Part shown: one piece after another, positions 17,358 through 63,988 of the stretch
Layout of the letters: the number at the start of each line of letters is the position of its first letter
Numbering within the stretch: the first letter of the stretch is position 1
From: Methanocella sp.
Lineage (GTDB): Archaea; Thermoproteota; Bathyarchaeia; Bathyarchaeales; Bathycorpusculaceae
Assembly (NCBI GenBank): GCA_050261115.1
Contig: JBLNCY010000008.1
Location: 1 to 64,000, forward strand
Length of the DNA: 64,000 nt
Direction: 5' to 3'
Notes under the pieces: model-generated
What the model saw: only the letters and a program-made list of their open reading frames with translations
Databases searched by the model: none
Told to the model about the DNA's origin: nothing
Translations under genes and position numbers: made by a program

Positions 17358-18833
17358 TTAGTTTTTCTTTTGGTGCTTATGGGTGTATTCTTTCTCGATT
17401 TGGACTCGGTGGACGTTGTTGTAGGCGCAGAAGGGGATGATTTTTTTGTCGGGTGTGATGTAGTGGACTACGCAACGGCGAACGCGGTTGACGTCAAAGT
17501 TGTAGCTGTCCATAAATGCCATGCAACCTAAGAGGAAGATGCGTCGGCGGATTTTGCCCAAAGACTTGTAGGTGGGGTTGATATGCATAGAGAGGATGCT
17601 TCTCATTAATGTGAAGGTGCCGACTTCCTTTGTGACCAGTAACATATTCATCGATACCATGGCACCCATGAATAGCGAAGCAAGCAGCTGAACCTGGTTC
17701 TTGGACTCAGCGTTCTCAGCGGTCTTTCGAATGGTATTGAAGAAGCGTTCAAAGTTTACAAAGCGGTTAATGGGGTACATTTTGCCGGTGCGTGGCGAGA
17801 CATAAACCCAGTTAACGATACCACATTGGGGACTGCAGCTAAAAAGCGGCCAAGGCTTCTGCATGAATTGCCTCATAATTTTAATCGGCGAAGTCATAAC
17901 CGACATAGGAAACAGGTCAACGGCTTTAATTTCGCCTCTTGTTTGGCTTTCTACGGATTCAGCAAAACTCCATTCGCGGAAGTTTTCACGGAAGGGGTTT
18001 TCAGTTGCTCGACCAGTGAAAGCAATGGGCTGGAAGATTAAGCCGCGGACGATGTCGGTGTTTTTGGCGGCGAAGCGTATCATATCACCGACTTCTTCGT
18101 CATTTAGACTTCTCATGAGTGTGTTTACGAGGATAACTTCCATGTCATACTTGCGGCAGACAGCGATAGCTCGGAGTTTATAGTCGAGGAGTTCTCTTCC
18201 TCGGATTTTTCTGTTAAAATCCTCATGGAAGCTGTCAAAGGACAGGTAAACGATGTTTAGGCCCGCTTTTTTGAACCGCTCAGCTAACGCGGGGTCGTCT
18301 GCAAGTTTCATGCCGTTAGTGGCGAGAATCGTCATGAATTTGAGGCGGTGTGCTTCGGCTATGATTTCGGGCATGTCTTCGCGCTCGCATGGTTCTCCGC
18401 CAGAGAAGAGGATCGCGGGGGGCTTGGGGTTGGCTTTGGCGGCGAATTCAAGCATGTCTACAAGTGCCTGCTTGGTGGGTTCGTAGTCCGTTGATTCCTG
18501 ATTGGGAAAAGTGCTGAAGCATACTGCACAGCGGAGGTTGCAGCGTTTGGTTACATCTATAACGCCGATAACGGTGCCGGACGCGTGGTTTTTACATGTT
18601 TCACAGACGTAGGGGCAGCCCTCGGGGTCTTTGGGTGCATTGAGATCGCCTAGATACTGGAATTGGTCGTATTTTCGCATGTGTTCAAAGATGGGTTGGC
18701 TTTGCCAGTGGGTGGCTTTGAAGTCTCCATGCTCGGGGCATTGTTTGCTGATTTGGATTTTACCGTTTACTTCTCTTAGTTGAGCATCGATTTTCTTTTG
18801 ACACTCAGGGCAGATGCTTTTTGTTTCATTCAA
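17358..18833 (-). CDS. tes: Tetraether lipid synthase (Tes / GDGT-MAS, MJ0619 family) radical SAM
   Basis: N-terminal SICPEC...CPEHG, CPYVCETCKNH, CNLRCAVC, CSPQCG, C-terminal RCVVHY...IIPFCAYN; directly downstream of DGGGP synthase. Confidence 0.85.
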   Translation of the reverse strand: MNETKSICPECQKKIDAQLREVNGKIQISKQCPEHGDFKATHWQSQPIFEHMRKYDQFQYLGDLNAPKDPEGCPYVCETCKNHASGTVIGVIDVTKRCNLRCAVCFSTFPNQESTDYEPTKQALVDMLEFAAKANPKPPAILFSGGEPCEREDMPEIIAEAHRLKFMTILATNGMKLADDPALAERFKKAGLNIVYLSFDSFHEDFNRKIRGRELLDYKLRAIAVCRKYDMEVILVNTLMRSLNDEEVGDMIRFAAKNTDIVRGLIFQPIAFTGRATENPFRENFREWSFAESVESQTRGEIKAVDLFPMSVMTSPIKIMRQFMQKPWPLFSCSPQCGIVNWVYVSPRTGKMYPINRFVNFERFFNTIRKTAENAESKNQVQLLASLFMGAMVSMNMLLVTKEVGTFTLMRSILSMHINPTYKSLGKIRRRIFLLGCMAFMDSYNFDVNRVRRCVVHYITPDKKIIPFCAYNNVHRVQIEKEYTHKHQKKN

Positions 18834-19733
18834 CTATAGGAGCACTCCGACGAGGGCTTGGACTATTAGCGCTATGATTAGCAGCATCATTGACATGGTT
18901 ACGATGCGCTCGTATTTACGTATACTCGCAACGTTGGTAGCGGACGTAAAGAGACGTACGGACACATAGATTAAAAGAGCGCTCCAAACCAGAATCAGCG
19001 CCAGATAGTAAACTGAGAATCCGCCAATCAGGTAAGGTAGGGGCGCTAGTATACCTGTTAAAAGGAAGAATACGCCGCCGACTTTAGCTGCGCTTATGCT
19101 GCCGATTTTCTGGGGTAGCGTGGGGTAACCGACTTTGGCGTCGCCCTCCAAGCTAAAAATGTCACGCAGCACGTTGCCGCCTATGGTACCAAACGCTATA
19201 GGATAGAGACTTAATGATGCGAGGGTGATTGTGCCAGTCATGGTTGCCTCGCCGTAGAGAAAAGCGGTACCAGTCAAGAAGCCCATCAGCAGGTTAGCTG
19301 CAAAGCCTGACTTTCGCTTTATCAGATAAGAGTAAACCAAGAGCAAGCCAGAGTCAACGGCGATTATGGCAAACGCCAGCCAGTTAATCAAAAATGCTAA
19401 CACTAAACCTAGCGCAAAAAGCATGCTAGAGATTGCCACCGCTGACTTGTAGGAGAGCGCTCCAGAGGGGATGGGCCGCTTGGGTTTAATGACGGCATCG
19501 CTTTCTCGATCGTAGTAATCGTTTATGGCAAAGCCGGCAGAAGCGGTAAAGGACAAGGAGAAGAAAGTCAACAAAGCCACTATGCCTACATTGAGGTTGC
19601 CTAAGGTGGTTAGTACATCTGCAAAGTTGTTGAGAATTGCAAAAGCGGTCAGTACGGCTAGGCCGCCTGTCATCATCCAATAGGGTAAACGTATTAGGGC
19701 GATTAATCCTCGAGCGGGGGAGGGTTGAGTCAT
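18834..19733 (-). CDS. Digeranylgeranylglyceryl-phosphate synthase (UbiA family)
   Basis: INDYYDRESDAVIKPKRPIPSG, RDIFSLEGD.KVG..TLP, multiple TM helices. Confidence 0.8.
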   Translation of the reverse strand: MTQPSPARGLIALIRLPYWMMTGGLAVLTAFAILNNFADVLTTLGNLNVGIVALLTFFSLSFTASAGFAINDYYDRESDAVIKPKRPIPSGALSYKSAVAISSMLFALGLVLAFLINWLAFAIIAVDSGLLLVYSYLIKRKSGFAANLLMGFLTGTAFLYGEATMTGTITLASLSLYPIAFGTIGGNVLRDIFSLEGDAKVGYPTLPQKIGSISAAKVGGVFFLLTGILAPLPYLIGGFSVYYLALILVWSALLIYVSVRLFTSATNVASIRKYERIVTMSMMLLIIALIVQALVGVLL

Positions 19734-20656
19734 ATACTTATTTTCCTGTCAGCGATGACTTCCTTGATGCTCTCTTCTAGGGGTACTTTGGGGGTCCAAC
19801 CGAGTTCATTCTTAGCTTTAGTGATGTCAAACCAGATTTTGGTTACGTCACCCTGCCAGGATACTCCCGTAGTTGTGACTTTTGTTCGGTTCTTTAGATT
19901 AAGAATCGATAGGATGAGGTCGGCGAGTTCAAGTATGGAAGTGGTTTTTCCTAAGCCCAAGTTGTAAACTTCACCGTTAACACCCTCCTTTTCACCGAGT
20001 AGAACGAGCGCGGCTACTACGTCGGAGACGTGAACGAAGTCACGGCATTGCTTGCCTGTGCCAAGGATTTCGAGTTTATCGGGGTTCTTCTGTAGCTTTC
20101 CTAGGAAGTCATGGATAACGCCGTGGCAGCGTAAGCCGTAGACGTTGGCGAAGCGGGTGATGACGACGTCTAATCCGTATTGTTCACGGTACATTTGGCA
20201 ATATTCTTCGCCGACTACTTTGCTTAAACCGTAACAGGAGAATGGATGGAACCCATAGGATTCGGGTGTGGGAAACACAGTGGGGTTACCATAAACCGCT
20301 GCTGAGGAGGCGAAAACAACTCTTGCGTCGTCTCGGCGGGCTTTCTCAAGCACATGGAGGGTGCCTTTGGCGTTGGTGTCAAAATCAGCCAGCGGGTTCT
20401 CCATGGAATAGCCTACGACGACTTGTGCGGCTAAGTGGTAGATTAGGTCCTGTTTGGGCACCTCGCAGAGGGTTTTGAGGTCTAAGATGTCGCCCTTCAC
20501 GAAATTTGCTTTGGGAATATCTGATACGTTCTGCATGGTGCCGCTTGATAAGTTATCGTAAATAGTCAAGTTACTGTTTAACTCAGAGAGCCTCTTACAC
20601 AGGTGATAACCTATGAATCCTGCCCCGCCAGTAACCATTACCTTTTTCCCTTCCAT
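19730..20656 (-). CDS. NAD-dependent epimerase/dehydratase (GalE-like SDR)
   Basis: VTGGAGFIG, HLAA, ASSAAVYG, YGLSK, RFANVYG, RDFVHVSD; ATG 20656 preferred start. Confidence 0.9.
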   Translation of the reverse strand: MEGKKVMVTGGAGFIGYHLCKRLSELNSNLTIYDNLSSGTMQNVSDIPKANFVKGDILDLKTLCEVPKQDLIYHLAAQVVVGYSMENPLADFDTNAKGTLHVLEKARRDDARVVFASSAAVYGNPTVFPTPESYGFHPFSCYGLSKVVGEEYCQMYREQYGLDVVITRFANVYGLRCHGVIHDFLGKLQKNPDKLEILGTGKQCRDFVHVSDVVAALVLLGEKEGVNGEVYNLGLGKTTSILELADLILSILNLKNRTKVTTTGVSWQGDVTKIWFDITKAKNELGWTPKVPLEESIKEVIADRKISI

Positions 20657-20713
20657 CCATGATACCCCTTTGACAATAAAGCCTATATTCACTATAGGCA
20701 AGTTGGTAGGTAT

Positions 20714-21562
20714 ATGTCGGCGATGAAAGCTATAAAAGTTTTCAAGGACTTGCTGTCATTCTTAACCATCATACCGATGGGTGGAAAAGAAGATTTTATC
20801 TTCACCACAGCCGCTAACATGTACCTTTTCCCAGTAATCGGAGCCTTCATCGGACTGCTAGCTGGGCTGTATTATGTTGCTGCAAGCACAATCGTGGGTT
20901 TGGTTTTGGGTTTAGTTGGCGCATATGTCGCCATACCCGCCGTTTTTGGCATGCTAATCCCAGCGGCTATGACAATCGCGTTCCTGCTGGTTATAACGGG
21001 GCTGCAGCACTTCGACGGCCTAATTGACCTCGGCAACGCTTTAGGTATACGTAACCTTCACGACCGCAAGATGAAGGCACACGAATGGACAGTAACCTAC
21101 GGCGGCGCTGTCTTGGCGTTTGCAGTGGAGGCATTGGCTTTTTTCGGCTTGTTCTGGATTGTTCGCGGCTCAATAGACACATGGCTGGCGTTTTCGGCGG
21201 TGTTTTTAGCGGAAGTCTCAGCAAAACTCGCTATGGTTACCATCGTCTGGGTTGGCAAGCCGTCGCATAAAGGGCTTGGGTCGATTTTCCTAGCAAAAGC
21301 AAAAAAGAAACTCAACATAGCGGCTTACGTGATTTCGGCTCTGCTTGTTCTCCCAGTTCTGTACTTCCTCGCGGGACCACTATTGGCGTTGGTTGCGGTG
21401 GCTGTGATGTTTGTCAGTATCCCGGTCGCGTTTGTGATGAATAAGGTTTCAAACAACGTGTTTGGCGGAGTTTCAGGTGACATGATTGGGGCGACTAATG
21501 AGGTTGCCCGAGCAGTTACGCTTATTCTGTTTGCTGTTGTGTTATTGGTGATGTCACTATGA
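20714..21562 (+). CDS. cobS: Cobalamin synthase CobS paralog 1 (divergent)
   Basis: LSFLTIIP, FPVIG, TGLQHFDGLID, FGGVSGDMIGATNE. Confidence 0.82.
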   Translation: MSAMKAIKVFKDLLSFLTIIPMGGKEDFIFTTAANMYLFPVIGAFIGLLAGLYYVAASTIVGLVLGLVGAYVAIPAVFGMLIPAAMTIAFLLVITGLQHFDGLIDLGNALGIRNLHDRKMKAHEWTVTYGGAVLAFAVEALAFFGLFWIVRGSIDTWLAFSAVFLAEVSAKLAMVTIVWVGKPSHKGLGSIFLAKAKKKLNIAAYVISALLVLPVLYFLAGPLLALVAVAVMFVSIPVAFVMNKVSNNVFGGVSGDMIGATNEVARAVTLILFAVVLLVMSL

Positions 21563-22176
21563 TGGTTCCCGCTTTGATAATGGCTGGCGGTAGAGGAAGC
21601 CGCATGGGGTTGCCTACTGAGAAGCCGATGTTACCGTTTCTTGGTAAGCCTCTGCTGGATTGGGTTGTGGAAGCAGCTTTATCGGCAAAGAGCGTTAGTG
21701 AAGTCTGTATCGTCACCAGCAGTAACACCCCCAAAACCGAGGCACACTGCAGAAGTAAAGGTTGGAGAACCCTATACACTGACGCTAAGGGTTACCATGA
21801 CGATTTGAAGCAGGCGGTAGCCAAGTTAGGCTGGATGGGTCCAGTGCTGACGATGCCCTCAGATGTGCCAGCCATTACAGGACCAATCTTGGATAGTGTA
21901 ATTAGCGAGTTTGAGGTTTCGGGGAAGGATTTTTTGGCGGTGTTTGTGCCGATTGAGAAGCGGCAGGCGCTGGGACTATCCATTTCCTCCACGGACGAAT
22001 ACAAGGGGGTATGGTATGCTGTTTCAGGGGTTAACATCATTAACGGCTCTAAAATTCTAGGAGAAGGCAAAATTGAGACAGCCGCCATAATCACCGAAGA
22101 AACCGAAGTTGTCCTAAACGTGAACACTACAAAGGACTTTGAAGTCGCCGAGAAACTCATGACTAAGCCCCGCTGA
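21559..22176 (+). CDS. cobY: Adenosylcobinamide-phosphate guanylyltransferase CobY paralog 1
   Basis: ALIMAGGRGSRM..EKP, TPKT, GYHDDL, SGVNII, NVNT; overlaps cobS stop. Confidence 0.85.
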   Translation: MMVPALIMAGGRGSRMGLPTEKPMLPFLGKPLLDWVVEAALSAKSVSEVCIVTSSNTPKTEAHCRSKGWRTLYTDAKGYHDDLKQAVAKLGWMGPVLTMPSDVPAITGPILDSVISEFEVSGKDFLAVFVPIEKRQALGLSISSTDEYKGVWYAVSGVNIINGSKILGEGKIETAAIITEETEVVLNVNTTKDFEVAEKLMTKPR

Positions 22177-22251
22177 AACTCTTGCTGTGGTGCGCCTACA
22201 ACATAATTGTGTAAAGCGATAACTCGCATTTTAACTAAGAGGTACTTTATT

Positions 22252-22530: not shown

Positions 22531-22583
22531 GCTAGCCCGATAGGAAAAAAAGGCCCGTGGCGACCGAAATGGTTTATTGTCGT

Positions 22584-24137
22584 TTAGGGTGAGACAACCA
22601 GCAGTTTACCATCCAAAACAACAAAATCAACCGCAACCTCACTAATCCTATCAGCACTTATGGCATCAAGGTTTTCGGCAAGTATAGTTAAATCGGCTAG
22701 TTTACCTTCCTCAATTGATCCCTTGATGGCTTCTTCGCCTGAGCAATAAGCAGCATTTAGGGTGTATAAACGGATGGCTTCGTCAAGGCCTAGTCTCTGC
22801 TCGGGGTAGCTGAGTCTATTGGTAAGCTCTTGCATACCAAGTAACGCGCTCAGAGGCTCCATGGGGCAGTCAGAGCCAGCAGCAACCATAACCCCTTCAT
22901 CGAGAAGAGTTTTGATGGGATGGAGTAGGCGGGCGCGGTTGCCGAGGTGCTGTTTAGCTGACCAAACTGAGAATTCGGTGGTGATGACTTTGGGTTGGAT
23001 GGTAACTATCACTTTTTGTGCTTTGAGACGCTTGATGAGGGAATTGTCAAGAACAGCTGCCTGCTCAATTCGAAAACGCACATCGCGCCGTTTTGATTGC
23101 TCGATTACCGTGAGTGCCGCATCGATAGCGCGATCGCCCATAGCGTGGATAACAGGTTGCACACCAAACGATAGGGCATGCTTAACCGAAGCCTCTAAAG
23201 CCTCAGCGGTTAGCAGCATCTTACCATAATTCGCAGGGTCATCGCTGTAGGGCTCTTGCAATGCAGCCTCCTTAGAATCCAAGTAACCATCAACTACAAT
23301 GAATGCACCCCCAACCTTTAGCACCTCAGAGCACTTTGAAGTCAACTCCGATACTGCTTTTTCCAGCATCACCTCGGGAACCACAACATTAACCCGAAAC
23401 AACAAACGGTCCTGTTCATGCAACCTTCTGATAATTGAAAGCTCGCTTTCAGAGATGACTAACCAGACGATACTGGTTATGCCTGCCTGGAAAATTTTCT
23501 GGCACGCTTGCGCCGCCGCCTCCAACAGTTCATCCTCAGTGGGTTCAGGCACAGCCTGCCAAATCAAATTAGCAGCGGCATCGCGGAAAACCCCTATCAA
23601 CTCGCCCTCGACGGTTTTGTCTATTGTGCCGCCTGGGGGTGTGGGGGTCTGTTGGGTTATTTTTGCGAGTTGGATGGCTTTTGTGTTGGCTGCGCAGATC
23701 ATGGCTGCTTCGCGGTAGAGGATAACTGGGTTGTCGGGTGCAGCCTCATCTAGTTCCTCTTTTGTGGGGGCGCGTTGCTCTTTTAGGCGATTTTCGCTCC
23801 ATCCTTGCCCTATAATCCACCTGCCTGGGCAAGTCAGTTTAGCTTTCTCTTTGATGAGTTGCTGTAGTTCTATGATGGATTTTGCGGAGGTTAGGTCTAG
23901 CCACATTAGGCAGCGCCCGTAATCAGCTACGTGTATGTGGGTATCAATCAAGCCTGGGAGAACGGTTTTTCCCTCAAGGTTCATGACGGTGGTTTCGGGG
24001 CTGATTAGAGTTTGAATTTCCTGGTTGGTGCCCACTTTGAGGATTTTGTTTCCAGAAATCGCTAGGGCTTGTGCGGTGGGTTGATTGGGATTCATGGTTT
24101 TGATATTCGCGTTAATGATTGCTAGATGTGCGTACAA
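22584..24137 (-). CDS. Amidohydrolase 3 family (YtcJ-like)
   Basis: LPGLIDTHIH, HAMGD, GSDCP, GSIEEGKLADL. Confidence 0.85.
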   Translation of the reverse strand: MYAHLAIINANIKTMNPNQPTAQALAISGNKILKVGTNQEIQTLISPETTVMNLEGKTVLPGLIDTHIHVADYGRCLMWLDLTSAKSIIELQQLIKEKAKLTCPGRWIIGQGWSENRLKEQRAPTKEELDEAAPDNPVILYREAAMICAANTKAIQLAKITQQTPTPPGGTIDKTVEGELIGVFRDAAANLIWQAVPEPTEDELLEAAAQACQKIFQAGITSIVWLVISESELSIIRRLHEQDRLLFRVNVVVPEVMLEKAVSELTSKCSEVLKVGGAFIVVDGYLDSKEAALQEPYSDDPANYGKMLLTAEALEASVKHALSFGVQPVIHAMGDRAIDAALTVIEQSKRRDVRFRIEQAAVLDNSLIKRLKAQKVIVTIQPKVITTEFSVWSAKQHLGNRARLLHPIKTLLDEGVMVAAGSDCPMEPLSALLGMQELTNRLSYPEQRLGLDEAIRLYTLNAAYCSGEEAIKGSIEEGKLADLTILAENLDAISADRISEVAVDFVVLDGKLLVVSP

Positions 24138-24287
24138 GCCCTACTTCTCCAAGTGACATTTGTAGCGCTAGTTGGATGGATGTCATAAAAAACCTTCCGT
24201 TACGCCAAACTTACCTTAGCTGGGCCTGTTTACGTAAAACATAATAGCTTCGCGCGCGGTGTCTTGATTAAATCTCGGGGTTCAACC

Positions 24288-25769
24288 GTGAAAGCTCACG
24301 TAACACTTGTAAATCCGCCTTATCCAAAAGGAGCCACACAATCCATTTTTCTGCCGCTTGGCATCGGCTACTTGGCAGCGGTACTAGAACAGGAAGACTA
24401 CCAAGTTAGCGTAGTAGACTGCCAAATTACCCGACCCAACGAGAAGACACTTACAGAGAAATTTCAGAGTCTAAACCCTGACATCATCGGCGTAACCAGC
24501 GCCACAGTCACCTATTTACCGGCATTAGAAATTCTAAAAATCGCCAAAACTGCTGTACCCAACGCCTTGACGCTCATGGGCGGCCCGCATGTCACCGTGC
24601 TTGACCAAGAAGCCGTCACCGAAAGCCCCGACCTTGACATCGTGGTGCGCGGCGAAGGCGAACAGACCATGCTGGAACTTGCTAAACTTGTCAGTGAAGG
24701 CAACCTCAAAAATCTAGGTCAGGTCCAGGGCATCACCTTTAAGCGCAATAAAGAAATCATCCGCACTCCCGACCGGCCCTTTATAGCTGACATCGACAGC
24801 CTACCAAGGCCAGCGCATCACCATTTTGATACTAACATGTATCGGCTCTTTGGAGTCAACTACATGCCCATCATAACCAGCCGCGGCTGTCCCAGCGCCT
24901 GCACCTTCTGCTTAGCCTCAAAGATGTGTGGCCATGCGTTCCGCGCACGTAGCCCTAGCAAGGTTGTAGATGAGTTGGAGTGGCTTCGTGACGAATTCCA
25001 TGCTGGCGCCTTTGCGTTTTATGATGATACGTTTACGTTTGATTTGAAGCGGGCGTTTGCTATCTGTGATGAGATGCAGAAGCGCAAGCTGGATTTGCCT
25101 TGGGACTGCCGTACCCGCGTCGACCGCGTCAATAAAGAGTTGCTGGCAAAGCTTAAGGCAACAAACTGTCAGCTTATCCACTTTGGCGTTGAATCGGGCA
25201 GTCCAGAGATGCTAAAGTTAATGCGCAAAGGTACCACCGTGGAGCTTAATGCGCAGGCGATTAAGTGGGCTAAGGAGGCAGGTATATCGGTTGCGGTTTC
25301 GCTGGTCATCGGTTATCCCACTGAGACCCCTGAGATGTTAAAGCAGACCATCGACTTCCTCTACAAGACCAAACCCGATTATGTTTACATGTGTGAAGCG
25401 GTGCCTTATCCCGGCACTGAACTTGCCCACTTCATCAAGACACTGGGACTTGAGGTGCCAACAGACTGGAACCAGTACAGAGAGGAAACCCAGATATTCA
25501 AAAATGAACTACTCCCCCTTGAGAAGCTTGAGGAAGTTAAAAAGGACTATTTTGACCACTTCTTCACCAAACGCTACTTCCTCTCCAAGAAACTAAAGGG
25601 GGACTTCTACAGCCAAATCATGGCCCGCGCCGCCTTAAACCACATCGTCTGGAACAGCAAAACCGCCATGTGGGCCTTCCGTCGCCTAAGCAAAGTACGC
25701 GGTAAAAAGAAGAGCGCAGGAGGCTACAGCACCTCCCCCGAGGAGCAGGAAGCCCAAGCCAAAGTTTAA
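24288..25769 (+). CDS. Cobalamin-binding radical SAM protein (class B-like) #1
   Basis: LVNPP..PLGIGYLAAVL, GGPHVT, VRGEGE, TSRGCPSACTFC, GVESG, PYPGT. Confidence 0.9.
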   Translation: MKAHVTLVNPPYPKGATQSIFLPLGIGYLAAVLEQEDYQVSVVDCQITRPNEKTLTEKFQSLNPDIIGVTSATVTYLPALEILKIAKTAVPNALTLMGGPHVTVLDQEAVTESPDLDIVVRGEGEQTMLELAKLVSEGNLKNLGQVQGITFKRNKEIIRTPDRPFIADIDSLPRPAHHHFDTNMYRLFGVNYMPIITSRGCPSACTFCLASKMCGHAFRARSPSKVVDELEWLRDEFHAGAFAFYDDTFTFDLKRAFAICDEMQKRKLDLPWDCRTRVDRVNKELLAKLKATNCQLIHFGVESGSPEMLKLMRKGTTVELNAQAIKWAKEAGISVAVSLVIGYPTETPEMLKQTIDFLYKTKPDYVYMCEAVPYPGTELAHFIKTLGLEVPTDWNQYREETQIFKNELLPLEKLEEVKKDYFDHFFTKRYFLSKKLKGDFYSQIMARAALNHIVWNSKTAMWAFRRLSKVRGKKKSAGGYSTSPEEQEAQAKV

Positions 25770-28294: not shown

Positions 28295-28299
28295 TTTAT

Positions 28300-31928: not shown

Positions 31929-31949
31929 CAGGCTGCGCAGACGCATAGG

Positions 31950-33522: not shown

Positions 33523-33572
33523 TGCAAACTTTTAATCACTCAATACGCATGGTTTGCAGAGAAGTGCCTTCC

Positions 33573-37408: not shown

Positions 37409-37553
37409 GCACTTGTGTCTCTTTGTGGTTTGTATGTATTGCATGGCTTGGGAAATATTAGCCTTGTGTGTAGTTTTGCACCATTTCAGGGCGAATGCAT
37501 CAGACGCCAATCAAAGAAACAGGTTTAAAAAAAAGAGAAGGGATGATGGTTTT

Positions 37554-42974: not shown

Positions 42975-43170
42975 CCTGTTCACGCTTGAAGTGTTGTCTG
43001 TGTGAAGGCGTTTGATGCTTAAATCGTTTCGCATTCCAACCCAAAACATGGCACCATACCATCGCCCAGCAGAAACTGCACCTATGGTGCAATAACAGAA
43101 TAAGAGTGCCTGTCGCTGAAACTATTTATGTTAAAAAGCATAATGCAATGTAGCTTCGGAGGACAACCAG

Positions 43171-49417: not shown

Positions 49418-49424
49418 GCATGTC

Positions 49425-50516: not shown

Positions 50517-50526
50517 TTTGGCTCAC

Positions 50527-54322: not shown

Positions 54323-54485
54323 CTAGCTTGGATGCAAATCAGCAAAGATATGCCCTTATCTAACAGAAAACAGCTCAGTCAGCCTGTAACCCAAAAATTT
54401 TCCAAAACAGCTAAAACTTCATAAGTGAAAACAACGACGGTTAAGCTATACCCAACATTATCCACCAGCATAGCGCGTGCAAACC

Positions 54486-55991: not shown

Positions 55992-57293
55992 ATGACAAAG
56001 ACCTCTGCAACTGACCAACAGTCAGAAGTTTACGAAGCACGGGAAAACTGGCCCCCGTACACTTACCGTGATTACCCAGACATCAAAGCTGAAACCTATG
56101 AATCCTTCATGCAATTCTTAAACACCGAAAACACTTCGGGTCGCCTTATGGAGTTGCAGCCTTGGGTTTCAGTCTGTGACAGTCGATGCGCATTCTGCTA
56201 TTTCCCAACCACCGCGTCAAGCAAAGTCCAGATTGGACCATACCTCGAGTTACTCAAAAAAGAACTCGGCATGTACGCTAAAACCAAATATGTGAAAACA
56301 AGCACCTTTGACGAGATCGTTTTAGGTGGAGGAACCCCAAGTGTTTTAGGCGCTGAACAAATTATCGACTTGATCGATTACTGTAAAGCTAACTTTAACA
56401 CCAGCAAAGAATACTTTATCAAAATCACTGGATCCTCCAAAACCCTTGCATTACCAAAAATAAAAAAGCTTGCTGAATACGGTGTCTACCAGATGGATAT
56501 GGGCGCCCAAACCTTTGACGACAACCTACGCAAGGCGCTTTGCTTACCAGACAGCGCCAAAGACGTCGAGGAAGCCATACGATACGCCCGCAAACTCGGC
56601 TTAGTCGTCTGCGCAGACATAATGTACAACCTGCCAGGCCAAACCATGGAAAGCTGGGAAGCCACACTTAAAAAAGCAATAGAACTCGACGCAGAAGTAG
56701 ACTGCTACAGTCTTCACGTCGACCCCGGTACCATCCTTGAAAAAATGATAAAAAATGGGCAGTCACCCCCACAGGGCGATGCAGAATACGAGAAACAGAT
56801 GTTCCTCAAAGCCCACGAGATACTCACTAAAGCAGGCTACAAAGCCGTCGGACACGACCGCTACAGCCGCGTAGAGTGGCACATGCGCGAGAACTGCCTC
56901 AACGGTTGGCCATGGGGCGGCATTCTAACCACTGGCGCTGGCTGCTTTATGGGTTACCTTCAGAGGTTTAGCTACTCAAACATAGAAGACATCAATGCTT
57001 ACATGGAAACCGTAAAGTCAGGTAAGCTACCCATCTCTAGGCTGTCGGAGTCCACGATGGATGACATGATGCGTCGCACAATGTCAAGACTCTACCTCAG
57101 ATTGCCCGTCAGCAAAAAAGAGTTCAAGGAGAAATTCAACACAACCCCCGAAGCGGCTTTCCCCAAACAGATCGAGAAACTCAAAGCAGAAGGATTGCTG
57201 GAAACTGACGAAAACGAGGTTCGCTTGACTAAGAAGGGCGAGCTTTGGAAAGGTAACATTGCCTGGGAATTTGCGCCCCAAGCAAAAACCTAA
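55992..57293 (+). CDS. HemN/HemW-like (class C-type) radical SAM protein
   Basis: CDSRCAFCYF, GGGTPS, MGAQTFDD, DIMYNLPGQT, GAGC, RLTKKG C-terminus. Confidence 0.85.
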   Translation: MTKTSATDQQSEVYEARENWPPYTYRDYPDIKAETYESFMQFLNTENTSGRLMELQPWVSVCDSRCAFCYFPTTASSKVQIGPYLELLKKELGMYAKTKYVKTSTFDEIVLGGGTPSVLGAEQIIDLIDYCKANFNTSKEYFIKITGSSKTLALPKIKKLAEYGVYQMDMGAQTFDDNLRKALCLPDSAKDVEEAIRYARKLGLVVCADIMYNLPGQTMESWEATLKKAIELDAEVDCYSLHVDPGTILEKMIKNGQSPPQGDAEYEKQMFLKAHEILTKAGYKAVGHDRYSRVEWHMRENCLNGWPWGGILTTGAGCFMGYLQRFSYSNIEDINAYMETVKSGKLPISRLSESTMDDMMRRTMSRLYLRLPVSKKEFKEKFNTTPEAAFPKQIEKLKAEGLLETDENEVRLTKKGELWKGNIAWEFAPQAKT

Positions 57294-57331: not shown

Positions 57332-57814
57332 ATGAAAAACCAGACCCCACCCCTACTAACCTACCTAGAAAGCAAAGGCATAACACTTCAAAGCCTAATT
57401 GACTGCGCCCTAGAAATGTACGTCCCACATCCAGGCATAGAGACCCCTGAAAAAGCCACCGAACTACTCAAAGAAGAGTTCCTCGACGTTCTCTCAGACG
57501 TTAACATATCCATCCTTGAATGGGCCGCGTTCCATGCGCAGGAAGACGCCGAAAAAGGCTTAATCCCCGGCTTAACCCAGGAACGCTTCCGCGGAAGACC
57601 CGGACCCATCTCAGATGAAATCCTGGGCATAGCAATCGCTGAATACATCGGTGGCACCCGCGGGGTCTTCGAATACGTTCGGTTCGACCAAGCGAAACCC
57701 GGCATCCTAAAGAGCCTCGGCTCAATCACAAATGACGCCATCGGCGCCCTTGTTGCAGGTGTATCCTCGAACGTTTACACCAGAGCCATAAAAGCAGCAG
57801 GAACAACCTGCTAA
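57332..57814 (+). CDS. cobZ: Alpha-ribazole phosphatase CobZ (PgpA-like archaeal type)
   Basis: LSDVNI, DEILG.AIAEYIGG..G.FEYVRFD..KPGIL, DAIGALVAG. Confidence 0.8.
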   Translation: MKNQTPPLLTYLESKGITLQSLIDCALEMYVPHPGIETPEKATELLKEEFLDVLSDVNISILEWAAFHAQEDAEKGLIPGLTQERFRGRPGPISDEILGIAIAEYIGGTRGVFEYVRFDQAKPGILKSLGSITNDAIGALVAGVSSNVYTRAIKAAGTTC

Positions 57815-57863
57815 GCCTTTTTCCGTAAATTTTAATACCGTGCTGGCTGACGTTTAGTCGTCG

Positions 57864-59030
57864 TTGGCGGCCATGGATAGAACTTCACTCTGCATTGTAA
57901 CCCACACATTTCTGCCTCATGTCGGCGGCATAGAAAAGGTCGTTAACGAGCAAAGCAAACGGTTGGTGCATCATGGCTATACGCCGATGGTTGTGACTAA
58001 CCAGATTGGGACGCCTCGAAGGTACAGTGTGGATGGGGTGCCGGTGGATTGTTACCGATCTTTTAACATGGGTTTCCGTTTAGGGATTCCGTACTCGATT
58101 CCGACAGTGGACAGCTATGCAACTTTCACCAAAGCCGTCAAACAGCATAGACTCGTTCATGCCCATGGCCACCCCTACCTCACCTCGCTGCTTGCGGGGA
58201 AACTTGCCAAGTTCTACGGCAAACCCTTCATACTCACCCAACACAACACCTACATCGAATACAACAACATCTTCAACCATATAGAAACACTAAACGATTT
58301 AGCCATAGGCAAACAAAACCTAAACTTAGCCGACAAAATCATAGTCATAAGCAGCGCCACCAAAGAATACGTGCTCAGGTTAGGGGCAAAACCCCGCAAA
58401 GTCACCGTAATCTACAACGGCGTTGACGTCTCAAGGTTCCGAATAATCCCCGGAAAACGCGAAGAAATGCGTAGAAAACTCGGCATCGCCCAAGATGCAG
58501 TTGTGGTTTTGACTGTCCGCAGACTCGTCTACAAAAACGGCGTTGACACATTGCTGGATTGCGCTAATCTTGTGGTTAAAAAGAACCCTAAAATCGTGTT
58601 TGTCACGGTGGGGAAAGGCCCCGACATGGAAAGCGTCCGGCAGCGGGCTATGCAGTATGGGATTGCTTCGAACTTTAGGCTTGCGGGGTTTGTAAGCGAC
58701 GCCGATTTACCCTCTTATTATAATATGGCGGATGTGTTTGTGTTGCCATCTAAGTCGGGTGAGGGGTTGCCGCTTGTTGCTATGGAGGCTATGGCTTGCG
58801 GGTTACCCGTAGTGGCAACTGATGTGGGTGGTATTAAGGAAGTGTTGCCCAGAAAGTTTGGTAAGCTTGTGCCGCCTAACCAGCCCGAGCTGCTTGCTGA
58901 TGCGGTTTTGGAGTTTGCCTCGCTGGATTTTGCTGCGCGCAGGGCGGATCTTCATGCAGCCGTAAAAACTCAGTTCAGCTGGGACGTTAACGTTAACAGG
59001 CTCAGGGAATTATACGAAGAGCTTATTTAA
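57864..59030 (+). CDS. Glycosyltransferase family 4
   Basis: FLPHVGGIE, HAHG, IYNGVD, GEGLPLVAMEAMACGLPVVATDVGG. Confidence 0.92.
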   Translation: MAAMDRTSLCIVTHTFLPHVGGIEKVVNEQSKRLVHHGYTPMVVTNQIGTPRRYSVDGVPVDCYRSFNMGFRLGIPYSIPTVDSYATFTKAVKQHRLVHAHGHPYLTSLLAGKLAKFYGKPFILTQHNTYIEYNNIFNHIETLNDLAIGKQNLNLADKIIVISSATKEYVLRLGAKPRKVTVIYNGVDVSRFRIIPGKREEMRRKLGIAQDAVVVLTVRRLVYKNGVDTLLDCANLVVKKNPKIVFVTVGKGPDMESVRQRAMQYGIASNFRLAGFVSDADLPSYYNMADVFVLPSKSGEGLPLVAMEAMACGLPVVATDVGGIKEVLPRKFGKLVPPNQPELLADAVLEFASLDFAARRADLHAAVKTQFSWDVNVNRLRELYEELI

Positions 59031-59078
59031 CATCGTGACGGAAACATTATAACCCCTTGATGCGGAAGTAAGCTGCTG

Positions 59079-59816
59079 ATGACTTCAAAAGTCGAATTGG
59101 TCTCAATTGTCATTCCGACGCTCAACGAGGCAGGTACCATACGTTATGCGATTGAAACGATCGATAAGTATGTGACTTATCCAAAAGAAATTATCATCGT
59201 AGACGGTAGCTCAACTGATGGCACTATAGAGATTGTTAAAGATACAAAAAAATGTAAACTCATAATTGAACCCAGACGGGGCTACGGCTTAGCCTTAAGA
59301 ACCGGCATGAAAGCAGCCAATGGCAACGTCCTAATCATGGTGGACGCCGACGGAACCTACGAATTCAAGCACATCGACCGCCTCGTAACCCGACTGCTAG
59401 AAAAAGACGCCGATATGGTCTTAGCTACCCGCATGTATGACCCCAACAAAGCCATGGGTTTTCTGAACTTTTTGGGGAATAAAGTCATCACGTTCACCTT
59501 TGACTTCTTCTACAGCCAATTCCTAAGCGACACCCAATCCGGCTTCCGCGCGATTTCACGCGAAAAGTATGATAGTGTAGAGTTTAGGGAAACTGATATG
59601 CCCTTTGCAACTGAGATGCTTATTCGATTCGCAAGAGAGGGCTACAACATGGTGGAGATTCCCACCACCTATAAGCCTCGAACGTATGGCCAAACTAAGC
59701 TTAGACCGTTCCAGTCGGGGATTAGGATTTTTAGCACTATATTTAGGGGGTTTTTGGATGCAAAGACGTTTAGGGTCTGTTATGCGCATTGGAAGAAAAA
59801 TCGGTTTAAGCGATGA
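59079..59816 (+). CDS. Glycosyltransferase family 2 (polyprenol-phosphate glycosyltransferase-like)
   Basis: IPTLNE, VDGSSTDGT, GYG.A, VDADGTY, DTQSGFRA. Confidence 0.9.
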   Translation: MTSKVELVSIVIPTLNEAGTIRYAIETIDKYVTYPKEIIIVDGSSTDGTIEIVKDTKKCKLIIEPRRGYGLALRTGMKAANGNVLIMVDADGTYEFKHIDRLVTRLLEKDADMVLATRMYDPNKAMGFLNFLGNKVITFTFDFFYSQFLSDTQSGFRAISREKYDSVEFRETDMPFATEMLIRFAREGYNMVEIPTTYKPRTYGQTKLRPFQSGIRIFSTIFRGFLDAKTFRVCYAHWKKNRFKR

Positions 59817-60297
59817 AGAAGGCTACAAGCTTCCAGTACTCATCGCCCTCATAGTCGTTATCATATCCTTTCCCATCGTTATCGGAATTTCCTACTACTT
59901 TGCATCCCAGCCCCCCGAGCAGTATAACACCATGTATCTGCTGGATAGCCAGGGCATGGCAACCAACTACCCCAAAGTCCTCATCGCAGGCCAAAATAGC
60001 ACCTTTAGCGTCAACGTTAACGTCGAAAATCACATGCACAAAGAGCAGACATACCAGGTTCGCACAAAAATAGTAGAACACTTCATGTCGACCGCCAACG
60101 GCGTAGACGCCCCACCCATCAACACCTACGAATTTACCCTAGAAAAAGGCCAAACACACCAAAACACCGTCACCATCACTGAGAACAATGCGGGGAACTA
60201 TGCGGTGGTTTTTGAGCTCTGGTTGCTTGACGAAGATGAAAACTATGTCTTTACCTTCAATTACTGTGTGCTGGATATTCAAGTCATCAACCAATAG
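59782..60297 (+). CDS. DUF1616-like membrane-anchored protein
   Basis: One TM helix, then 'EQYNTMYLLD.QG.A.NYP', V.VENH, VFELW; start uncertain. Confidence 0.65.
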   Translation: MRIGRKIGLSDEEGYKLPVLIALIVVIISFPIVIGISYYFASQPPEQYNTMYLLDSQGMATNYPKVLIAGQNSTFSVNVNVENHMHKEQTYQVRTKIVEHFMSTANGVDAPPINTYEFTLEKGQTHQNTVTITENNAGNYAVVFELWLLDEDENYVFTFNYCVLDIQVINQ

Positions 60298-60411: not shown

Positions 60412-61839
60412 ATGAGCATCCTAAGCCATGATACTTTCTGGAACGCCATCGTCTCCATGCCCATGACCAAGCGCATGCTCCAACTCTCCCTACAAAAGTG
60501 CCCCCAATGCGGAAGAACCGTACTCGAAGCGGCGCTAGATGACTACGGCGGCAAAACCGACCGCAACTGCAGCAAATGCAGCCCGCTCTACTCCAAAATC
60601 ATCGCCTTCTGGATAGAGTTTCTACGTCGCGCCTTAGGGTTTAAGCGGGCCAAAGTCGAAAAACTCTTAACCGATCGATATGCACGCAACGCCGTCCTCA
60701 ACCTGGTGGAGTCCTTTGAGCATTTTGGCATACAAAAGCCTATGGCGCTAGTTGCGCCGTTTCTTGTGGTTTGGGATTTCACCCACAAATGTAACCTCCG
60801 TTGCAAACACTGCTACAGCAACAGCGGCGAACCCGACCCAGACGAACTCACCACGGAACAAGCCCTCAACGTCGTGGACCAGCTGGCCGATGCCCACGTT
60901 ACTGCGTTGGCGTTTAGCGGAGGTGAACCCATAACCCGAAAAGACTTCTTCGAGGTAGCCAGGCACGCTTCTGAGCGGGGGCTCTATGTTTCGCTTGCCT
61001 CAAACGGCACCCTACTTACTAAAGAAATCGCCGCTAAACTCAAGCAAGCCGGCGTAAACTATGTCGACATAAGCATCGATGGCGCCACGGCCAAAACACA
61101 TGACGACTTCCGAGGCGTTCCCGGCGCCTTTGACAGGGCTGTTGCTGGACTCAAAAACTGTGTGGAAGCGGACATATGCGCCTGCATAGCCACCACTGTG
61201 GGCAAAAACAACATGGCAGAGCTCCCCGCGATTATCGATTTAGCCGAGCAGCTTGAGGTGGAACGCTTCACTTACTTCAATTTCATCCCCGCAGGTCGCG
61301 GTAAAAACCACTCTGATCAGGATCTCTCAGCGCAGGAGCGGGAAGATGTCATGCGGTACCTGATTAATCGTATGTCTGCTGGCTGCAAAACCACCATCCT
61401 TGCCACGGCTCCACAGCTTGCCCGTGTAGCGACTCAATGCCAAGGCGATGCAGGCACTGGTGATGTGACGTTAGCGCTGGCGCATATGCAAACCGTCAAG
61501 GTTACCAAGAAAGCGGTGCCTCTGGGCGAGTTCATCGGTGGATGCGGTGCAGGTAGACTCTACTGCGCTATATCCCCGCAAGGCGACGTGCGGCCCTGTG
61601 TGTTCCTACCCGTTAACGTGGGTAACCTTAAGGAGCGCTCTTTTCATGACATATGGCTTAACGCGCCACTCTTCAACGCCTTCCGCAACCGAGCTAACCT
61701 TAAAGGCAGCTGCAGCAAATGCACCTACAAGTTCATCTGTGGCGGATGCCGCGCCCGCAGCGCAGCCTACCATGACGGTGACACCCTCTGCGGCGACCCC
61801 GGATGCTTGAATGGAGTGAAAATCGCCAATGGCTGCTAA
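60412..61839 (+). CDS. Radical SAM/SPASM protein with N-terminal CxxC...CxxC extension
   Basis: CPQC..CSKC, APFLVVWDFTHKCNLRCKHC, GGCGAGRLYC, PCVF, CSKC...CGGCRAR...DPGC. Confidence 0.88.
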   Translation: MSILSHDTFWNAIVSMPMTKRMLQLSLQKCPQCGRTVLEAALDDYGGKTDRNCSKCSPLYSKIIAFWIEFLRRALGFKRAKVEKLLTDRYARNAVLNLVESFEHFGIQKPMALVAPFLVVWDFTHKCNLRCKHCYSNSGEPDPDELTTEQALNVVDQLADAHVTALAFSGGEPITRKDFFEVARHASERGLYVSLASNGTLLTKEIAAKLKQAGVNYVDISIDGATAKTHDDFRGVPGAFDRAVAGLKNCVEADICACIATTVGKNNMAELPAIIDLAEQLEVERFTYFNFIPAGRGKNHSDQDLSAQEREDVMRYLINRMSAGCKTTILATAPQLARVATQCQGDAGTGDVTLALAHMQTVKVTKKAVPLGEFIGGCGAGRLYCAISPQGDVRPCVFLPVNVGNLKERSFHDIWLNAPLFNAFRNRANLKGSCSKCTYKFICGGCRARSAAYHDGDTLCGDPGCLNGVKIANGC

Positions 61840-62782
61840 TTCTGTTAGGATTAGTCGTGCAAGCGAAGACATAAGCGGCATCATAAAAGAAGCCATCAAC
61901 AACGCTGGACTGCGCGGCAAAAAGCGGATTTTCATTAAACCCAACCTCAGCCACCCCGAATACCTCCCGGGTGTTGTGACATGCCCCGACGTCATGCATA
62001 AAGTCGTCAGCCTACTCCGTGATGGCAACAGAGAAGTAATCGTGGGCGAATCCAACGGCATCAACTATCCCTGCTGGACAGCCTTTGACAAGACAGGCAT
62101 GAAAGAAGCAGTTGAATCCGCGGGTGGAGTCGCCGTTAATCTCTCTGATGATAAAGTGGTGGAAGTTAAATTCCAAACCCACACGCCGCTCAAGCGCCTC
62201 TATCTGCCTAAAACCGTGCTTGACGCCGACGCCGTTGTGGATTTGCCTTTGATGAAGACGCATGAGTTTATGGCGTATACAGGGGCGCTTAAGAATCTGT
62301 TTGGCTGCATCCCAAGCAACCGCCGCATCTACCTCCACCCCTACCTGCCAGAGGTCTTCTACCGCCTCTACCAAGTGCTCAAGCCCACGTTGACCATAAT
62401 GGATGCCCGCATAGGCATCGAAGGTAACGGCCCAACCAAGGGCAAACCCAAAAAGATGGGGCTATTCCTCACCGGCAACGACGCCCTAGCACTCGACATC
62501 ATTGCAACCGATGTGATGATGCTGAACTGGCGGAAAACCTACCTCAAATACGTCGCTGACAAAGTAAACTTTGACGCTGCATCTATCCGGGTCGAAGGGG
62601 TGCCAGTGAAGGAGGTTGCAAGCCGATTTGAGCATCCCAACATCGATTTACCAGTGAAGCTACAGATGAAAATATACCAACATGAATACGCCACCAAGTT
62701 GATGTTCTGCTCACTTGATATTATTCACTTGTTTCAGCGGATAACAAAGATGTACCGACGCGAACCTATACAACTCGTATAG
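61829..62782 (+). CDS. DUF362 domain protein
   Basis: IFIKPNL, VGES, LPLMKTH...TGALKNLFG, IMD..IGIEGNGP..G, D.LALD. Confidence 0.85.
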   Translation: MAANSVRISRASEDISGIIKEAINNAGLRGKKRIFIKPNLSHPEYLPGVVTCPDVMHKVVSLLRDGNREVIVGESNGINYPCWTAFDKTGMKEAVESAGGVAVNLSDDKVVEVKFQTHTPLKRLYLPKTVLDADAVVDLPLMKTHEFMAYTGALKNLFGCIPSNRRIYLHPYLPEVFYRLYQVLKPTLTIMDARIGIEGNGPTKGKPKKMGLFLTGNDALALDIIATDVMMLNWRKTYLKYVADKVNFDAASIRVEGVPVKEVASRFEHPNIDLPVKLQMKIYQHEYATKLMFCSLDIIHLFQRITKMYRREPIQLV

Positions 62783-62794
62783 CCATACCTCTGG

Positions 62795-63988
62795 TCAGCG
62801 TAATGCTTGGTCGTAGACTTTCATAGCATCCTTTACCACAATTCGCCAATCCAGTTCTTGCTCAACGGTTTCTCTTGCTGCTGCACCCATCTCGGATGCG
62901 AACGTTTTATGCTCAAGCAGATAGAGAATGCGGTCGGCGAACGCTTCTTCATCAAAGGGTTTGACCAGGAACCCGTTTTTGCCGCTTTGAATCGTCTCAG
63001 GTATGCCACCAACGGTGGTAGTAACGACGGGCAGCCCAGTGGAAAGCGCCTCCAAAACGGCAAAGGGATGATGCTCATAGAAAGTTGAGAACGCAAACAC
63101 GTCCGCCGCCTGGTAGAGTTTGGGCAGCTTCTGGTCGGGGTAGTAGCCTGTGAAAATGATATTGTCTATGACGCCGAGTCGTGTGGCGTGTGTGATGAGT
63201 TTTTGCATTTCGTCGCTTTGCCCTTTACCGCTGATTATGAACTTCGCGTTGGGAAACTTTTTGATTACTGGGGGCATGGATTCGATTAGGGTAAATAGAC
63301 CCTTGCGTGCATAGAGGCGCCCCACAGAGACGATTGCTATGTCATCTGGGTTGAATCCGAGCTCGCCTTTGATTTTTCTTTTGTCGGCGGCTGGCTGGAA
63401 TTTTTTGGTGTCAACTCCGTTATGGATAACTTTGATTTTGTGGGCCGGAATCTTGTAATAGTTTGTCAGTTCCCATTTTGTGAATTCGCTTACGGCTATG
63501 ACTTTTCGGGCGCGGTGAATCATAGTTTCTTCAAAGAACCGCAGCATCGGATTGAGAGTTATGAGCACTTTTTCGTTGGCGTTTAGGCGCATGAAGGGTT
63601 CGCTGCGGATTGCTTCTGCTTCGCCTTTCCAAGTAGAGTGTACGGTGCAGACAAGCGTTTTGCCATAGTTTGGGGGCACCGCAAAGTTGGGTGTGAGCGG
63701 CAATTGGGGATGCATGACGTCGATGTCTGCGGTGTCTTTGATGCTCTGTAGCTTTCGATAGCTGCTACCAGCAAGGATGAAGGATTTAACGGCGGGCATT
63801 TTTGGGCTTTTTAGGAAGGAGACGTCAAGTTGAGGGTTTACATGGACGTCTTGGGTTTGGTTGCTGCCGGTGACGACGTGAATGCGGTAGCCGTTTCTTA
63901 TGAGTTCATTGCTGAGGTAGTAGACATAGCTGCCGGTGCCGCCTGTGAGGGGCCAGAATTCGGGTGAGACAAAGCAGACTTTAGTCAT
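62795..63988 (-). CDS. Glycosyltransferase family 4
   Basis: PEFWP.TGG, IHNGVD, VGRLYARKG, EHHPFAVLEALSTGLPVV. Confidence 0.92.
   Translation of the reverse strand: MTKVCFVSPEFWPLTGGTGSYVYYLSNELIRNGYRIHVVTGSNQTQDVHVNPQLDVSFLKSPKMPAVKSFILAGSSYRKLQSIKDTADIDVMHPQLPLTPNFAVPPNYGKTLVCTVHSTWKGEAEAIRSEPFMRLNANEKVLITLNPMLRFFEETMIHRARKVIAVSEFTKWELTNYYKIPAHKIKVIHNGVDTKKFQPAADKRKIKGELGFNPDDIAIVSVGRLYARKGLFTLIESMPPVIKKFPNAKFIISGKGQSDEMQKLITHATRLGVIDNIIFTGYYPDQKLPKLYQAADVFAFSTFYEHHPFAVLEALSTGLPVVTTTVGGIPETIQSGKNGFLVKPFDEEAFADRILYLLEHKTFASEMGAAARETVEQELDWRIVVKDAMKVYDQALR

Follow-up and report, generated by a model that had tools for sequence, protein, structure and literature searches.

The stretch of DNA analyzed here (the window) is 64,000 nucleotides long and comprises positions 1 to 64,000 of contig C8 (GenBank JBLNCY010000008.1; C8:1-64000) from a member of the archaeal family Bathycorpusculaceae, class Bathyarchaeia, whose genome (hereafter G000) is 2.15 Mb in size and 95% complete. 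It holds part of a 70 to 90 kb island in which a second tetraether synthase (Tes2), a second UbiA-type prenyltransferase (UbiA2), a predicted glycerol monoalkyl glycerol tetraether (GMGT) synthase (Gms), five B12-binding radical S-adenosylmethionine (SAM) proteins (B1 to B5), glycosyltransferases (GTs), and duplicated cobamide genes are found together. This supercluster is real: it is conserved among relatives and co-inherited. As its best explanation we propose, with a probability of about 0.55, an accessory line in which the enzymes of the island would make a bridged, methylated, and glycosylated tetraether lipid, in parallel with the housekeeping line. At the level of sequence, the joint presence of three core-lipid families with proven or structurally anchored roles, namely, Tes, a UbiA resembling digeranylgeranylglyceryl phosphate (DGGGP) synthase, and Gms, argues for this proposal.

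The island is conserved and co-inherited

Pfam and NCBIfam scans of the 57 open reading frames (ORFs) of the window recovered every gene listed in a preliminary description of this DNA at its position, including two cobS, two cobY, cbiB, cobT, a cobZ-like gene, and three glycosyltransferases, and confirmed its count of nine radical SAM genes within 47 kb. Its five B12 radical SAM genes are the same ORFs as ours, but three of the starts that it gave (24288, 33573, and 54486) lie slightly downstream of those at 24264, 33459, and 54477. Five of the 13 PF02310 hits of the genome fall within the 47 kb (binomial p ~3e-6 for 5 of 12 within a specified 47-kb stretch), and the GC content is 49.8% here versus 47.4% genome-wide. 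The description had ended the island at 63988, for an extent of 47 kb; it runs on along the same contig, where it takes in another two GT2 genes, one DUF4234-like gene, and the second cobD (cobD2), and contigs C62, C11, and C56 of G000 carry further island genes, judged by better-assembled relatives.

To define the gene content, we compared 60 to 120 kb around tes2 in ten long-contig genomes, nine of them from the genus and one, G052, representing a second family (the comparison excluded G008 and G010). Fourteen genes were present in all ten islands at no less than 38% identity: those for Tes2, UbiA2, the epimerase, CobS1, CobY1, CobD2, CbiB2, Gms, a GT4, two GT2s, an amidohydrolase, B2, and B4. 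The gene order was shuffled among the islands; the order epi-ubiA2-tes2 was intact in 29 of 29 genus loci, 19 of which had a DUF1616 gene beside tes2. Linkage with tes, on which the preliminary description had staked its proposal, is thus conserved in relatives. Fuller islands also contain genes for an MtrH-like protein together with a small corrinoid protein (7/10), an RnfD-like protein (9/10), CbiZ (5/10), and two large membrane proteins (6/10); in G000, genes of these kinds sit on C62, C56, and C11. Passengers inside the 47 kb are few, namely, ORF 35052 (1/10 islands), cinA (4/10), and htpX (3/10).

Among 251 genomes of the class, Tes2 was found in 36, including 28 of the 42 family members besides G000 and 7 of 12 genomes in one other family, and in none from other orders. 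All 36 Tes2 genomes have two CobS proteins versus 2 of the 215 others, and 35 of the 36 have a member of the B3 clade versus none of the 215. No CobS was found in any of the 14 family members without Tes2, and another 50 class genomes that lack Tes2 carry just one CobS, of the canonical kind. G529 (92% complete) has Tes2 and two CobS with no B3-clade match, and two further genomes from its genus have neither Tes2 nor CobS. Four island-less genomes contain 0 to 3 B12-binding hits and a fifth, G331 (90% complete), contains 11; its lack of an island is probably an assembly gap.

The tetraether synthase and prenyltransferase of the window are second copies

The preliminary description regarded the island as built around the tetraether synthase. 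The window's tes and DGGGP synthase genes are diverged second copies, and the housekeeping copies are on other contigs. In a search of 61 genomes, two Tes genes were detected in G000, the window copy and C6:75530-77107; the latter has counterparts throughout the order, whereas Tes2 is 78 to 91% identical within the genus and 36 to 39% identical to the housekeeping Tes of its own genome. Against NF045702 (cut-off 450), Tes2 scored 459.4 bits, a marginal pass, compared with 665 for the C6 protein. Its N-terminal metal/Fe-S Cys motifs, the CxxxCxxC motif, and the C-terminal M-x-F-M-D-x-Y-N-F stretch align to Protein Data Bank (PDB) entry 7TOL, and these motifs are invariant across six Tes2 sequences. 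A profile search with Tes2 gave one 50%-identity cluster at 815 bits, followed by the next at 403 bits, and in a quick tree Tes2 lay on a long, weakly placed branch separate from the housekeeping Tes clade. An AlphaFold model built from the six sequences was too poor (mean predicted local distance difference test score, 54) and was not used.

The best PDB match of UbiA2 is DGGGP synthase 6M31 (E 3e-31). UbiA2 is 31% identical to the housekeeping copy at C16:19923 and scores 162 to 165 bits on the DGGGP synthase models, whose cut-offs are 269 to 296; the housekeeping copy scores higher, at 237 bits, and is also below them. The first Asp-rich motif of UbiA2 is intact, and the second is altered.

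Part of the tes2 region is present in 24 sequencing runs, 23 of which are recorded as RNA; anaerobic digesters and sludge are the main sources. This evidence consists of contigs and speaks to presence in RNA libraries, neither to strand nor to level. Contigs of four runs from four studies cover 24 to 26 of the 30 bins of positions 16000 to 35900, and one RNA-library contig spans 18380-20682 (tes2-ubiA2-epi). RNA-library contigs of two studies end at 20682, a weak hint that the 5' end of the operon lies there. A sigma-70 scan of the divergent promoter gave hits at chance level only.

The island encodes a Gms family member and five B12-binding radical SAM proteins

Gms has been defined as an AhbD homolog with an N-terminal extension of about 100 residues (COG4001) (Garcia et al. 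2024, PMC11214058). We required E ≤1e-80, a length of at least 400 residues, and placement in a clade apart from AhbD-type proteins, with proxies standing in for the Thermococcus guaymasensis Gms. In ORF 60412, the AhbD model covers residues 118-466, and the N-terminal extension aligns with the gms proxies. E values against gmm-adjacent proxies were 1e-98 to 1e-124 in 12 of 12 comparisons, and the protein grouped with the gms proxies (98/98) and not with seven SPASM proteins of G000 that have no extension, ORF 28527 among them. The cluster of the Acidilobus proxy includes five accessions that Dataset S2 of PMC11214058 gives as Gms, and the cluster of its neighbor holds adjacent accessions. On these criteria, ORF 60412 is a predicted member of the Gms family. 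The preliminary description had proposed lipid tailoring and overlooked this gene, which adds a further proven tailoring family of glycerol dialkyl glycerol tetraethers (GDGTs). Close homologs of ORF 60412 belong to named Bathyarchaeia, one of them a Bathycorpusculum, and matches at E ≤1e-60 occur in 154 of 301 genomes of the phylum; at six distant loci, a match is followed by a B12 radical SAM gene, the gms-gmm pattern. Two island-less family members, G319 (L119) and G195 (L120), have a different, longer Gms-type gene near cinA, 37 to 39% identical to ORF 60412.

B1 to B5 (ORFs 24264, 33459, 41586, 45305, and 54477) are all PF02310+PF04055 proteins, and the preliminary description suggested that they may tailor tetraethers. 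We applied the Gmm threshold described in a preprint (10.1101/2023.10.20.563219), E ≤1e-65 and at least 400 residues, using six gms-adjacent Gmm1 proxies and a database size of 1e11. B1, B3, B4, and B5 passed (E 1e-68 to 1e-93) and are thus Gmm-like by score. Two trees, one of 172 rows and one of a 61-row subset, placed B1, B3, and B5 with two paralogs from C62 in a single Bathyarchaeia clade (100/99), B4 in a clade of its own (100/99), and B2 with a C61 paralog and bacterial proteins (99/97). The B12 radical SAM proteins did not reach the NCBIfam cut-offs for BchE (best 266/481), HpnJ (252/578), HpnR (142/650), or BzaD (154/450). It has already been published that Gmm2 can reach four or more copies in Bathyarchaeota, with some of them sharing a scaffold (10.1101/2023.10.20.563219), and the copy number and host of the window's proteins fit that Gmm2 description, a comparison by description and not by tree placement.

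Cyclization, another activity suggested in the preliminary description, is not supported for the island. A ring synthase role for B1 to B5 was rejected from tree placement and from their similarity to Grs-type genes (at most 23% identity and 48 bits). Ring formation here is unlikely because the Grs-type genes sit on other contigs (C29:27664-29295 and C34:20197-21687); these were taken as Grs by inference, since an Acidilobus genome has two homologs, a Methanobacterium genome has none, and one lies beside gms in G125. A Ted-Hgs pair was likewise rejected: ORF 35052, beside B2, is not AttH-like and gave only weak transglutaminase/immunoglobulin hits, and no Hgs-type CrtC/AttH hydratase (PF07143) was found in the window or in the five island genomes searched. 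A C-terminal amphipathic/basic helix was discarded as a sign of membrane binding, bacterial relatives scoring equally. On C62 (4322-13760), two more B3-clade enzymes accompany the MtrH-like methyltransferase, the small corrinoid protein, and the two large membrane proteins, which lie within the island in 6 to 7 of 10 relatives; a methyl supply from the folate/methanopterin pool is possible.

Cobamide genes occur in a canonical and an altered set

The proposal that the module completes its own cobamide holds in part. The canonical finishing genes travel with the island and were not found in island-less family members, but half of the cobamide genes are altered duplicates. The de novo corrin operon of G000 is on C10, and a housekeeping cobD-cbiB pair is on C32. 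CobD, CbiB, CobY, and CobS are each duplicated, with cobD2 just past the window; the cobT of the window is the only one in the genome, and the cobZ-like gene scores 123.6 bits, below the cut-off of 152.5. In all six duplicated pairs (Tes, UbiA, CobD, CbiB, CobY, and CobS), the tes-linked copy has the lower score on the family model; with TIGR00317 (cut-off 110), for example, CobS1 scored 113.5 and CobS2 154.8.

In Salmonella CobS, D82, D86, and D89 of the loop 2 motif HxDxxxDxxD are each described as essential, and D89A abolishes function (PMC8092220). The last residue of this motif is N in 15 of 15 island copies and D in 9 of 9 canonical copies including CobS2, so that CobS1 has N at the D89 equivalent. 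CobS1 also lacks an M104 equivalent, and it keeps the H, the other two Asp, and the loop-6 motif GxxGDxxG (15/15). In G052 and G060, cobS1-cobY1 runs into cobD2 and the GT/gms block. The altered half may not serve ordinary B12.

The Dph6-like ATP pyrophosphatase gene (50527-51195) at the head of the cobT-cobS2-cobY2 operon is a second copy (the other being C13:15799) and is present in 8 of 10 islands; Dph6-like paralogs also flank B12 radical SAM genes in relatives. No CobQ/CbiP passed the cut-off in five genomes, and the Dph6-like protein is a candidate stand-in amide ligase for cobyric acid synthesis.

Proposed pathway and alternatives

The scheme starts from what was observed: what the genes are and to which families they belong, which of them are duplicated, and that their linkage is conserved and their distribution shared. 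Every substrate and product is inferred from this. UbiA2 would form a diether from a substrate poorly handled by the housekeeping DGGGP synthase, Tes2 would couple the tails, and Gms would cross-link them to give a GMGT. Using methylcobalamin, some of B1, B3, B4, and B5 would methylate the lipid or, like Ted, introduce double bonds. The epimerase and the GT2 and GT4 proteins would build a sugar head group, to which CobD2-CbiB2-CobY1-CobS1 may add an amino-alcohol phosphodiester unit, unless they make a variant cobamide; the canonical cobT-cobS2-cobY2-cobZ genes would finish B12 for the radical SAM proteins. Possible but doubtful is the specific version in which the four Cob duplicates are repurposed, so that an amino-alcohol phosphate would be made, activated, and joined by a phosphodiester to the sugar on a bridged, multiply methylated UbiA2/Tes2/Gms tetraether. 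In its boldest form, the joined unit would be cobinamide, giving a lipid-anchored corrinoid.

Several observations weigh against an accessory lipid line. The second Tes of Methanosarcina acetivorans (MA_1114) gave only trace macrocyclic archaeol and no GDGT in the work as described (Zeng et al. 2022, PMC8941075), and activity of Tes2 therefore cannot be assumed. B2 failed the Gmm threshold (E 1e-51 to 1e-55), and bacterial B12 radical SAM proteins are similar at comparable identity (35 to 41%), so the threshold is not specific. None of the five falls inside any gms-adjacent Gmm1 group in either tree, and none is canonical Gmm1; the deep branches are weak, with Gmm1 as a single clade at 64/94. 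The sister group of the B1/B3/B5 clade contains two enzymes situated among GT4 genes, an indication of sugar substrates. Proteins resembling tetrapyrrole enzymes are encoded by many of the core genes (AhbD-like, HemN-like, amidohydrolase, and cob duplicates). The B12 array of G008 is on a different contig from tes2, and tes2 and gms are on separate contigs in G313, G117, G244, and G255, from two other genera. Finally, related genomes are not independent, and the co-distribution consequently reflects few gains and losses.

A cobamide-centered island is a possible but doubtful alternative. The duplicate cob genes, CbiZ, the amidohydrolase, the AhbD/HemN-like proteins, and some of the B12 radical SAM proteins would then serve to remodel a corrinoid or to make a variant one, and shared use of the cofactor would be the reason why the lipid genes are clustered with them. 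The complete second cobD-cbiB-cobY-cobS set agrees with this, as do the cbiZ, MtrH-like, and small corrinoid protein genes of 5 to 7 of 10 islands, CobB/CbiA in the G052 island, the absence of CobS from all 14 family members without Tes2, and the H, two Asp, and GxxGDxxG retained by CobS1. However, 50 other class genomes lack Tes2 and have only one, canonical CobS, the D89 position of CobS1 is occupied by N and M104 has no counterpart in it, and the best BzaD score is far below its cut-off (154 versus 450). In addition, cobS1-cobY1 stands head to head with the lipid operon and joins cobD2 and the GT/gms block in G052 and G060.

As a special case of the accessory lipid line, the product might be a butanetriol or pentanetriol dialkyl glycerol tetraether (BDGT or PDGT), as the preliminary description suggested; a B12 radical SAM protein would methylate the glycerol backbone, and UbiA2 and Tes2 would accept a butanetriol intermediate. 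Methanomassiliicoccus luminyensis methylates its lipid backbone. We searched 151 Thermoplasmata-class genomes, 29 of which bear mcrA (Methanomassiliicoccales type), with B3 as the sole query (E ≤1e-40). Only 2 of the 29 gave matches, at 30 to 36% identity, no orthologs were found, and none of the enzymes from mcrA-bearing genomes grouped inside any window clade; because B3 was the sole query and its paralogs are 30 to 41% identical to it, the search may have overlooked a distant ortholog of B2 or B4. Tes2, too, has no close relative beyond its own clade. The restriction of the island to two families of one order speaks for this product, second UbiA and Tes copies would suit an altered backbone, and a review names BDGTs as markers of Baizosediminiarchaeum, which belongs to the same named order as the subgroup-6 genus (PMC12694404). 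On balance we consider it unlikely. Another gene, C19:13816-15264 (L002:5817-7265), which encodes an HpnJ-like B12 radical SAM protein among GT4 genes, seemed a BDGT candidate because of its 51% ortholog in the mcrA-bearing G670 (L231:8317-9732); it was found in only 1 of the 251 class genomes and was rejected.

An envelope-glycan island appears still more improbable. The B12 radical SAM proteins, methyltransferases, and amide ligases would decorate a lipid-linked glycan, destined either for the surface proteins or for a lipoglycan, with Tes2, UbiA2, and Gms making no more than its anchor or being passengers. AglJ-like GT2s, GT4s, DUF1616/DUF6541 membrane proteins, and surface proteins do occur within the island, and the sister enzymes of the B1/B3/B5 clade among GT4 genes are in keeping with it. 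By contrast, the tightest unit is epi-ubiA2-tes2 (29/29), Gms is in every one of the ten islands, and the surface-protein family is spread genome-wide. Chance or recent juxtaposition of unrelated genes, to which the shuffled order and the few passengers might point, is refuted by synteny, because the content is kept in 10 of 10 islands down to 40 to 60% protein identity and the co-distribution is near exact.

Other genes of the island

The features of the island within the window are listed in Table 1. Of the four beta-propeller proteins in the preliminary description, three have Pfam propeller hits; the fourth (51448) has a weak hit only, yet is 37% identical to 37525. These two belong to a surface family of 850 to 900 residues with at least ten paralogs across the genome and almost no Pfam coverage. 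The class I methyltransferase frame opens with ACG at 43171, 8 bases after GGAGG (window 43158-43173), which gives 270 residues as in relatives, and the first standard start is at 43357; the ACG would be either a non-standard start or the result of a start mutation or consensus error. Outside the 47 kb, metK (window 5838-7016) scores as bacterial-type TIGR01034 and adjoins the island in 4 of 10 relatives. Scans of the window found no tRNA genes and no Rfam matches.

Table 1 Island features in the window, with strand and supporting evidence or occurrence among the ten islands
Position	Strand	Feature	Evidence or occurrence
17358..18833	-	Tes2, diverged second tetraether synthase	NF045702 459 bits; aligns to PDB 7TOL; own clade
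18834..19733	-	UbiA2, second DGGGP-synthase-like prenyltransferase	best PDB match 6M31
19730..20701	-	NDP-sugar epimerase (GalE-like short-chain dehydrogenase/reductase), first gene of epi-ubiA2-tes2 operon	start likely near 20656
20714..21562	+	CobS1, altered CobS duplicate, head to head with lipid operon	TIGR00317 113.5
21559..22176	+	CobY1, second CobY-type nucleotidyltransferase	
22584..24137	-	amidohydrolase-3 protein, core	10/10
24264..25769	+	B1, B1/B3/B5 clade of Bathyarchaeia, Gmm-like by score	7/10 by best hit
25766..28294	-	membrane-anchored beta-propeller surface protein	9/10
28527..29624	+	AhbD-like radical SAM/SPASM protein without N-terminal extension (not Gms)	9/10
29703..31928	+	double beta-propeller surface protein	7/10
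32446..33522	+	CbiB2, second CbiB	TIGR00380 226 vs 287 housekeeping; 10/10
33459..35024	+	B2, below Gmm threshold	groups with C61 paralog and bacterial proteins; 10/10
37525..40164	-	surface protein, expanded family	copies often within island
41586..43049	-	B3, nearest of the five to Gmm1 proxies	clade in 35/36 Tes2 genomes
43171..43983	+	class I methyltransferase	frame agrees with that of relatives from 43171 (ACG) on; 9/10
43985..45061	-	tandem Lrp/AsnC regulator	8/10
45305..46732	+	B4, own deep clade, narrow pass of Gmm threshold	10/10
46733..47818	+	aldo/keto reductase with 4Fe-4S dicluster	5/10
48018..51195	-	operon of Dph6-like ATP pyrophosphatase, cobT, canonical cobS2, cobY2	8/10
51448..54057	-	surface protein, paralog of 37525	37% identity; weak Pfam propeller hit
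54477..55892	+	B5, B1/B3/B5 clade	8/10
55992..57293	+	HemN/ChuW-like radical SAM protein	9/10
57332..60297	+	cobZ-like, GT4, GT2 (AglJ-like), DUF1616 genes	block adjoins tes2 in most relatives
60412..61839	+	predicted Gms family member with N-terminal extension	clade with gms proxies; 10/10
61829..62782	+	DUF362 protein overlapping gms	9/10
62795..63988	-	GT4 glycosyltransferase	followed by GT2, GT2, DUF4234-like, cobD2 beyond window; 10/10

Significance and comparison with known systems

Anoxic sediments, soils, and digesters harbor Bathyarchaeia in abundance, and these archaea have been put forward as sources of GMGTs and BDGTs that serve as environmental markers. With the island, the hunt for enzymes of unusual lipids can concentrate on about 15 genes that are inherited together. 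New chemistry would follow, if true, from a Tes-UbiA pair of second copies acting on a substrate of its own, and likewise from a CobS working outside B12 synthesis; should Gms and one methylase be the only enzymes that act on lipids, the island would be a larger version of a known cluster. The preliminary description suggested that the module may be undescribed. The parts of the island are known families, and the presence of several Gmm2 copies on one scaffold in Bathyarchaeia has been published before; in literature searches that left subscription journals largely outside their coverage, no description of the island, of the second Tes-UbiA operon, or of the altered duplicate loop pathway was found.

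Compared with Tes/GDGT-MAS as described for the characterized protein (PMC8941075; 7TOL; NF045702), Tes2 shares the domain layout, the Cys/Met/Tyr motifs, and a pass of the family cut-off, but it sits on a long branch and is a second copy, whose operon also encodes a UbiA and an epimerase of its own. For cobamide loop assembly (CobD, CbiB, CobY, and CobS; PMC8092220), the four families of the published account are present, twice over in G000, whereas CobS1 has N at D89 and no M104 motif, and its set is tied to lipid and sugar genes and not to cobT.

In the gms-gmm-grs cluster of T. guaymasensis (PMC11214058), Gms is clustered with B12 radical SAM proteins of the Gmm superfamily, as it is here; the island differs in having no grs and in B12 enzymes that are not Gmm1. 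It shares with the Bathyarchaeota Gmm2 expansion, as the preprint describes it (10.1101/2023.10.20.563219), several B12 radical SAM copies per genome. To both accounts, as far as their accessible text goes, the island adds a second Tes, a second UbiA, glycosyltransferases, and a duplicate cobamide-loop pathway. According to another preprint (10.1101/2025.10.20.683597), the diverged Gmm homologs Cgm and Pgm are GDGT methylases, and Ted, 31% identical to Gmm, is a bathyarchaeal desaturase. These enzymes, compared here by description only, show that diverged Gmm members still act on tetraethers; the island differs in having no Hgs-type hydratase (none found in 5/5 genomes searched) and no grs neighbor.

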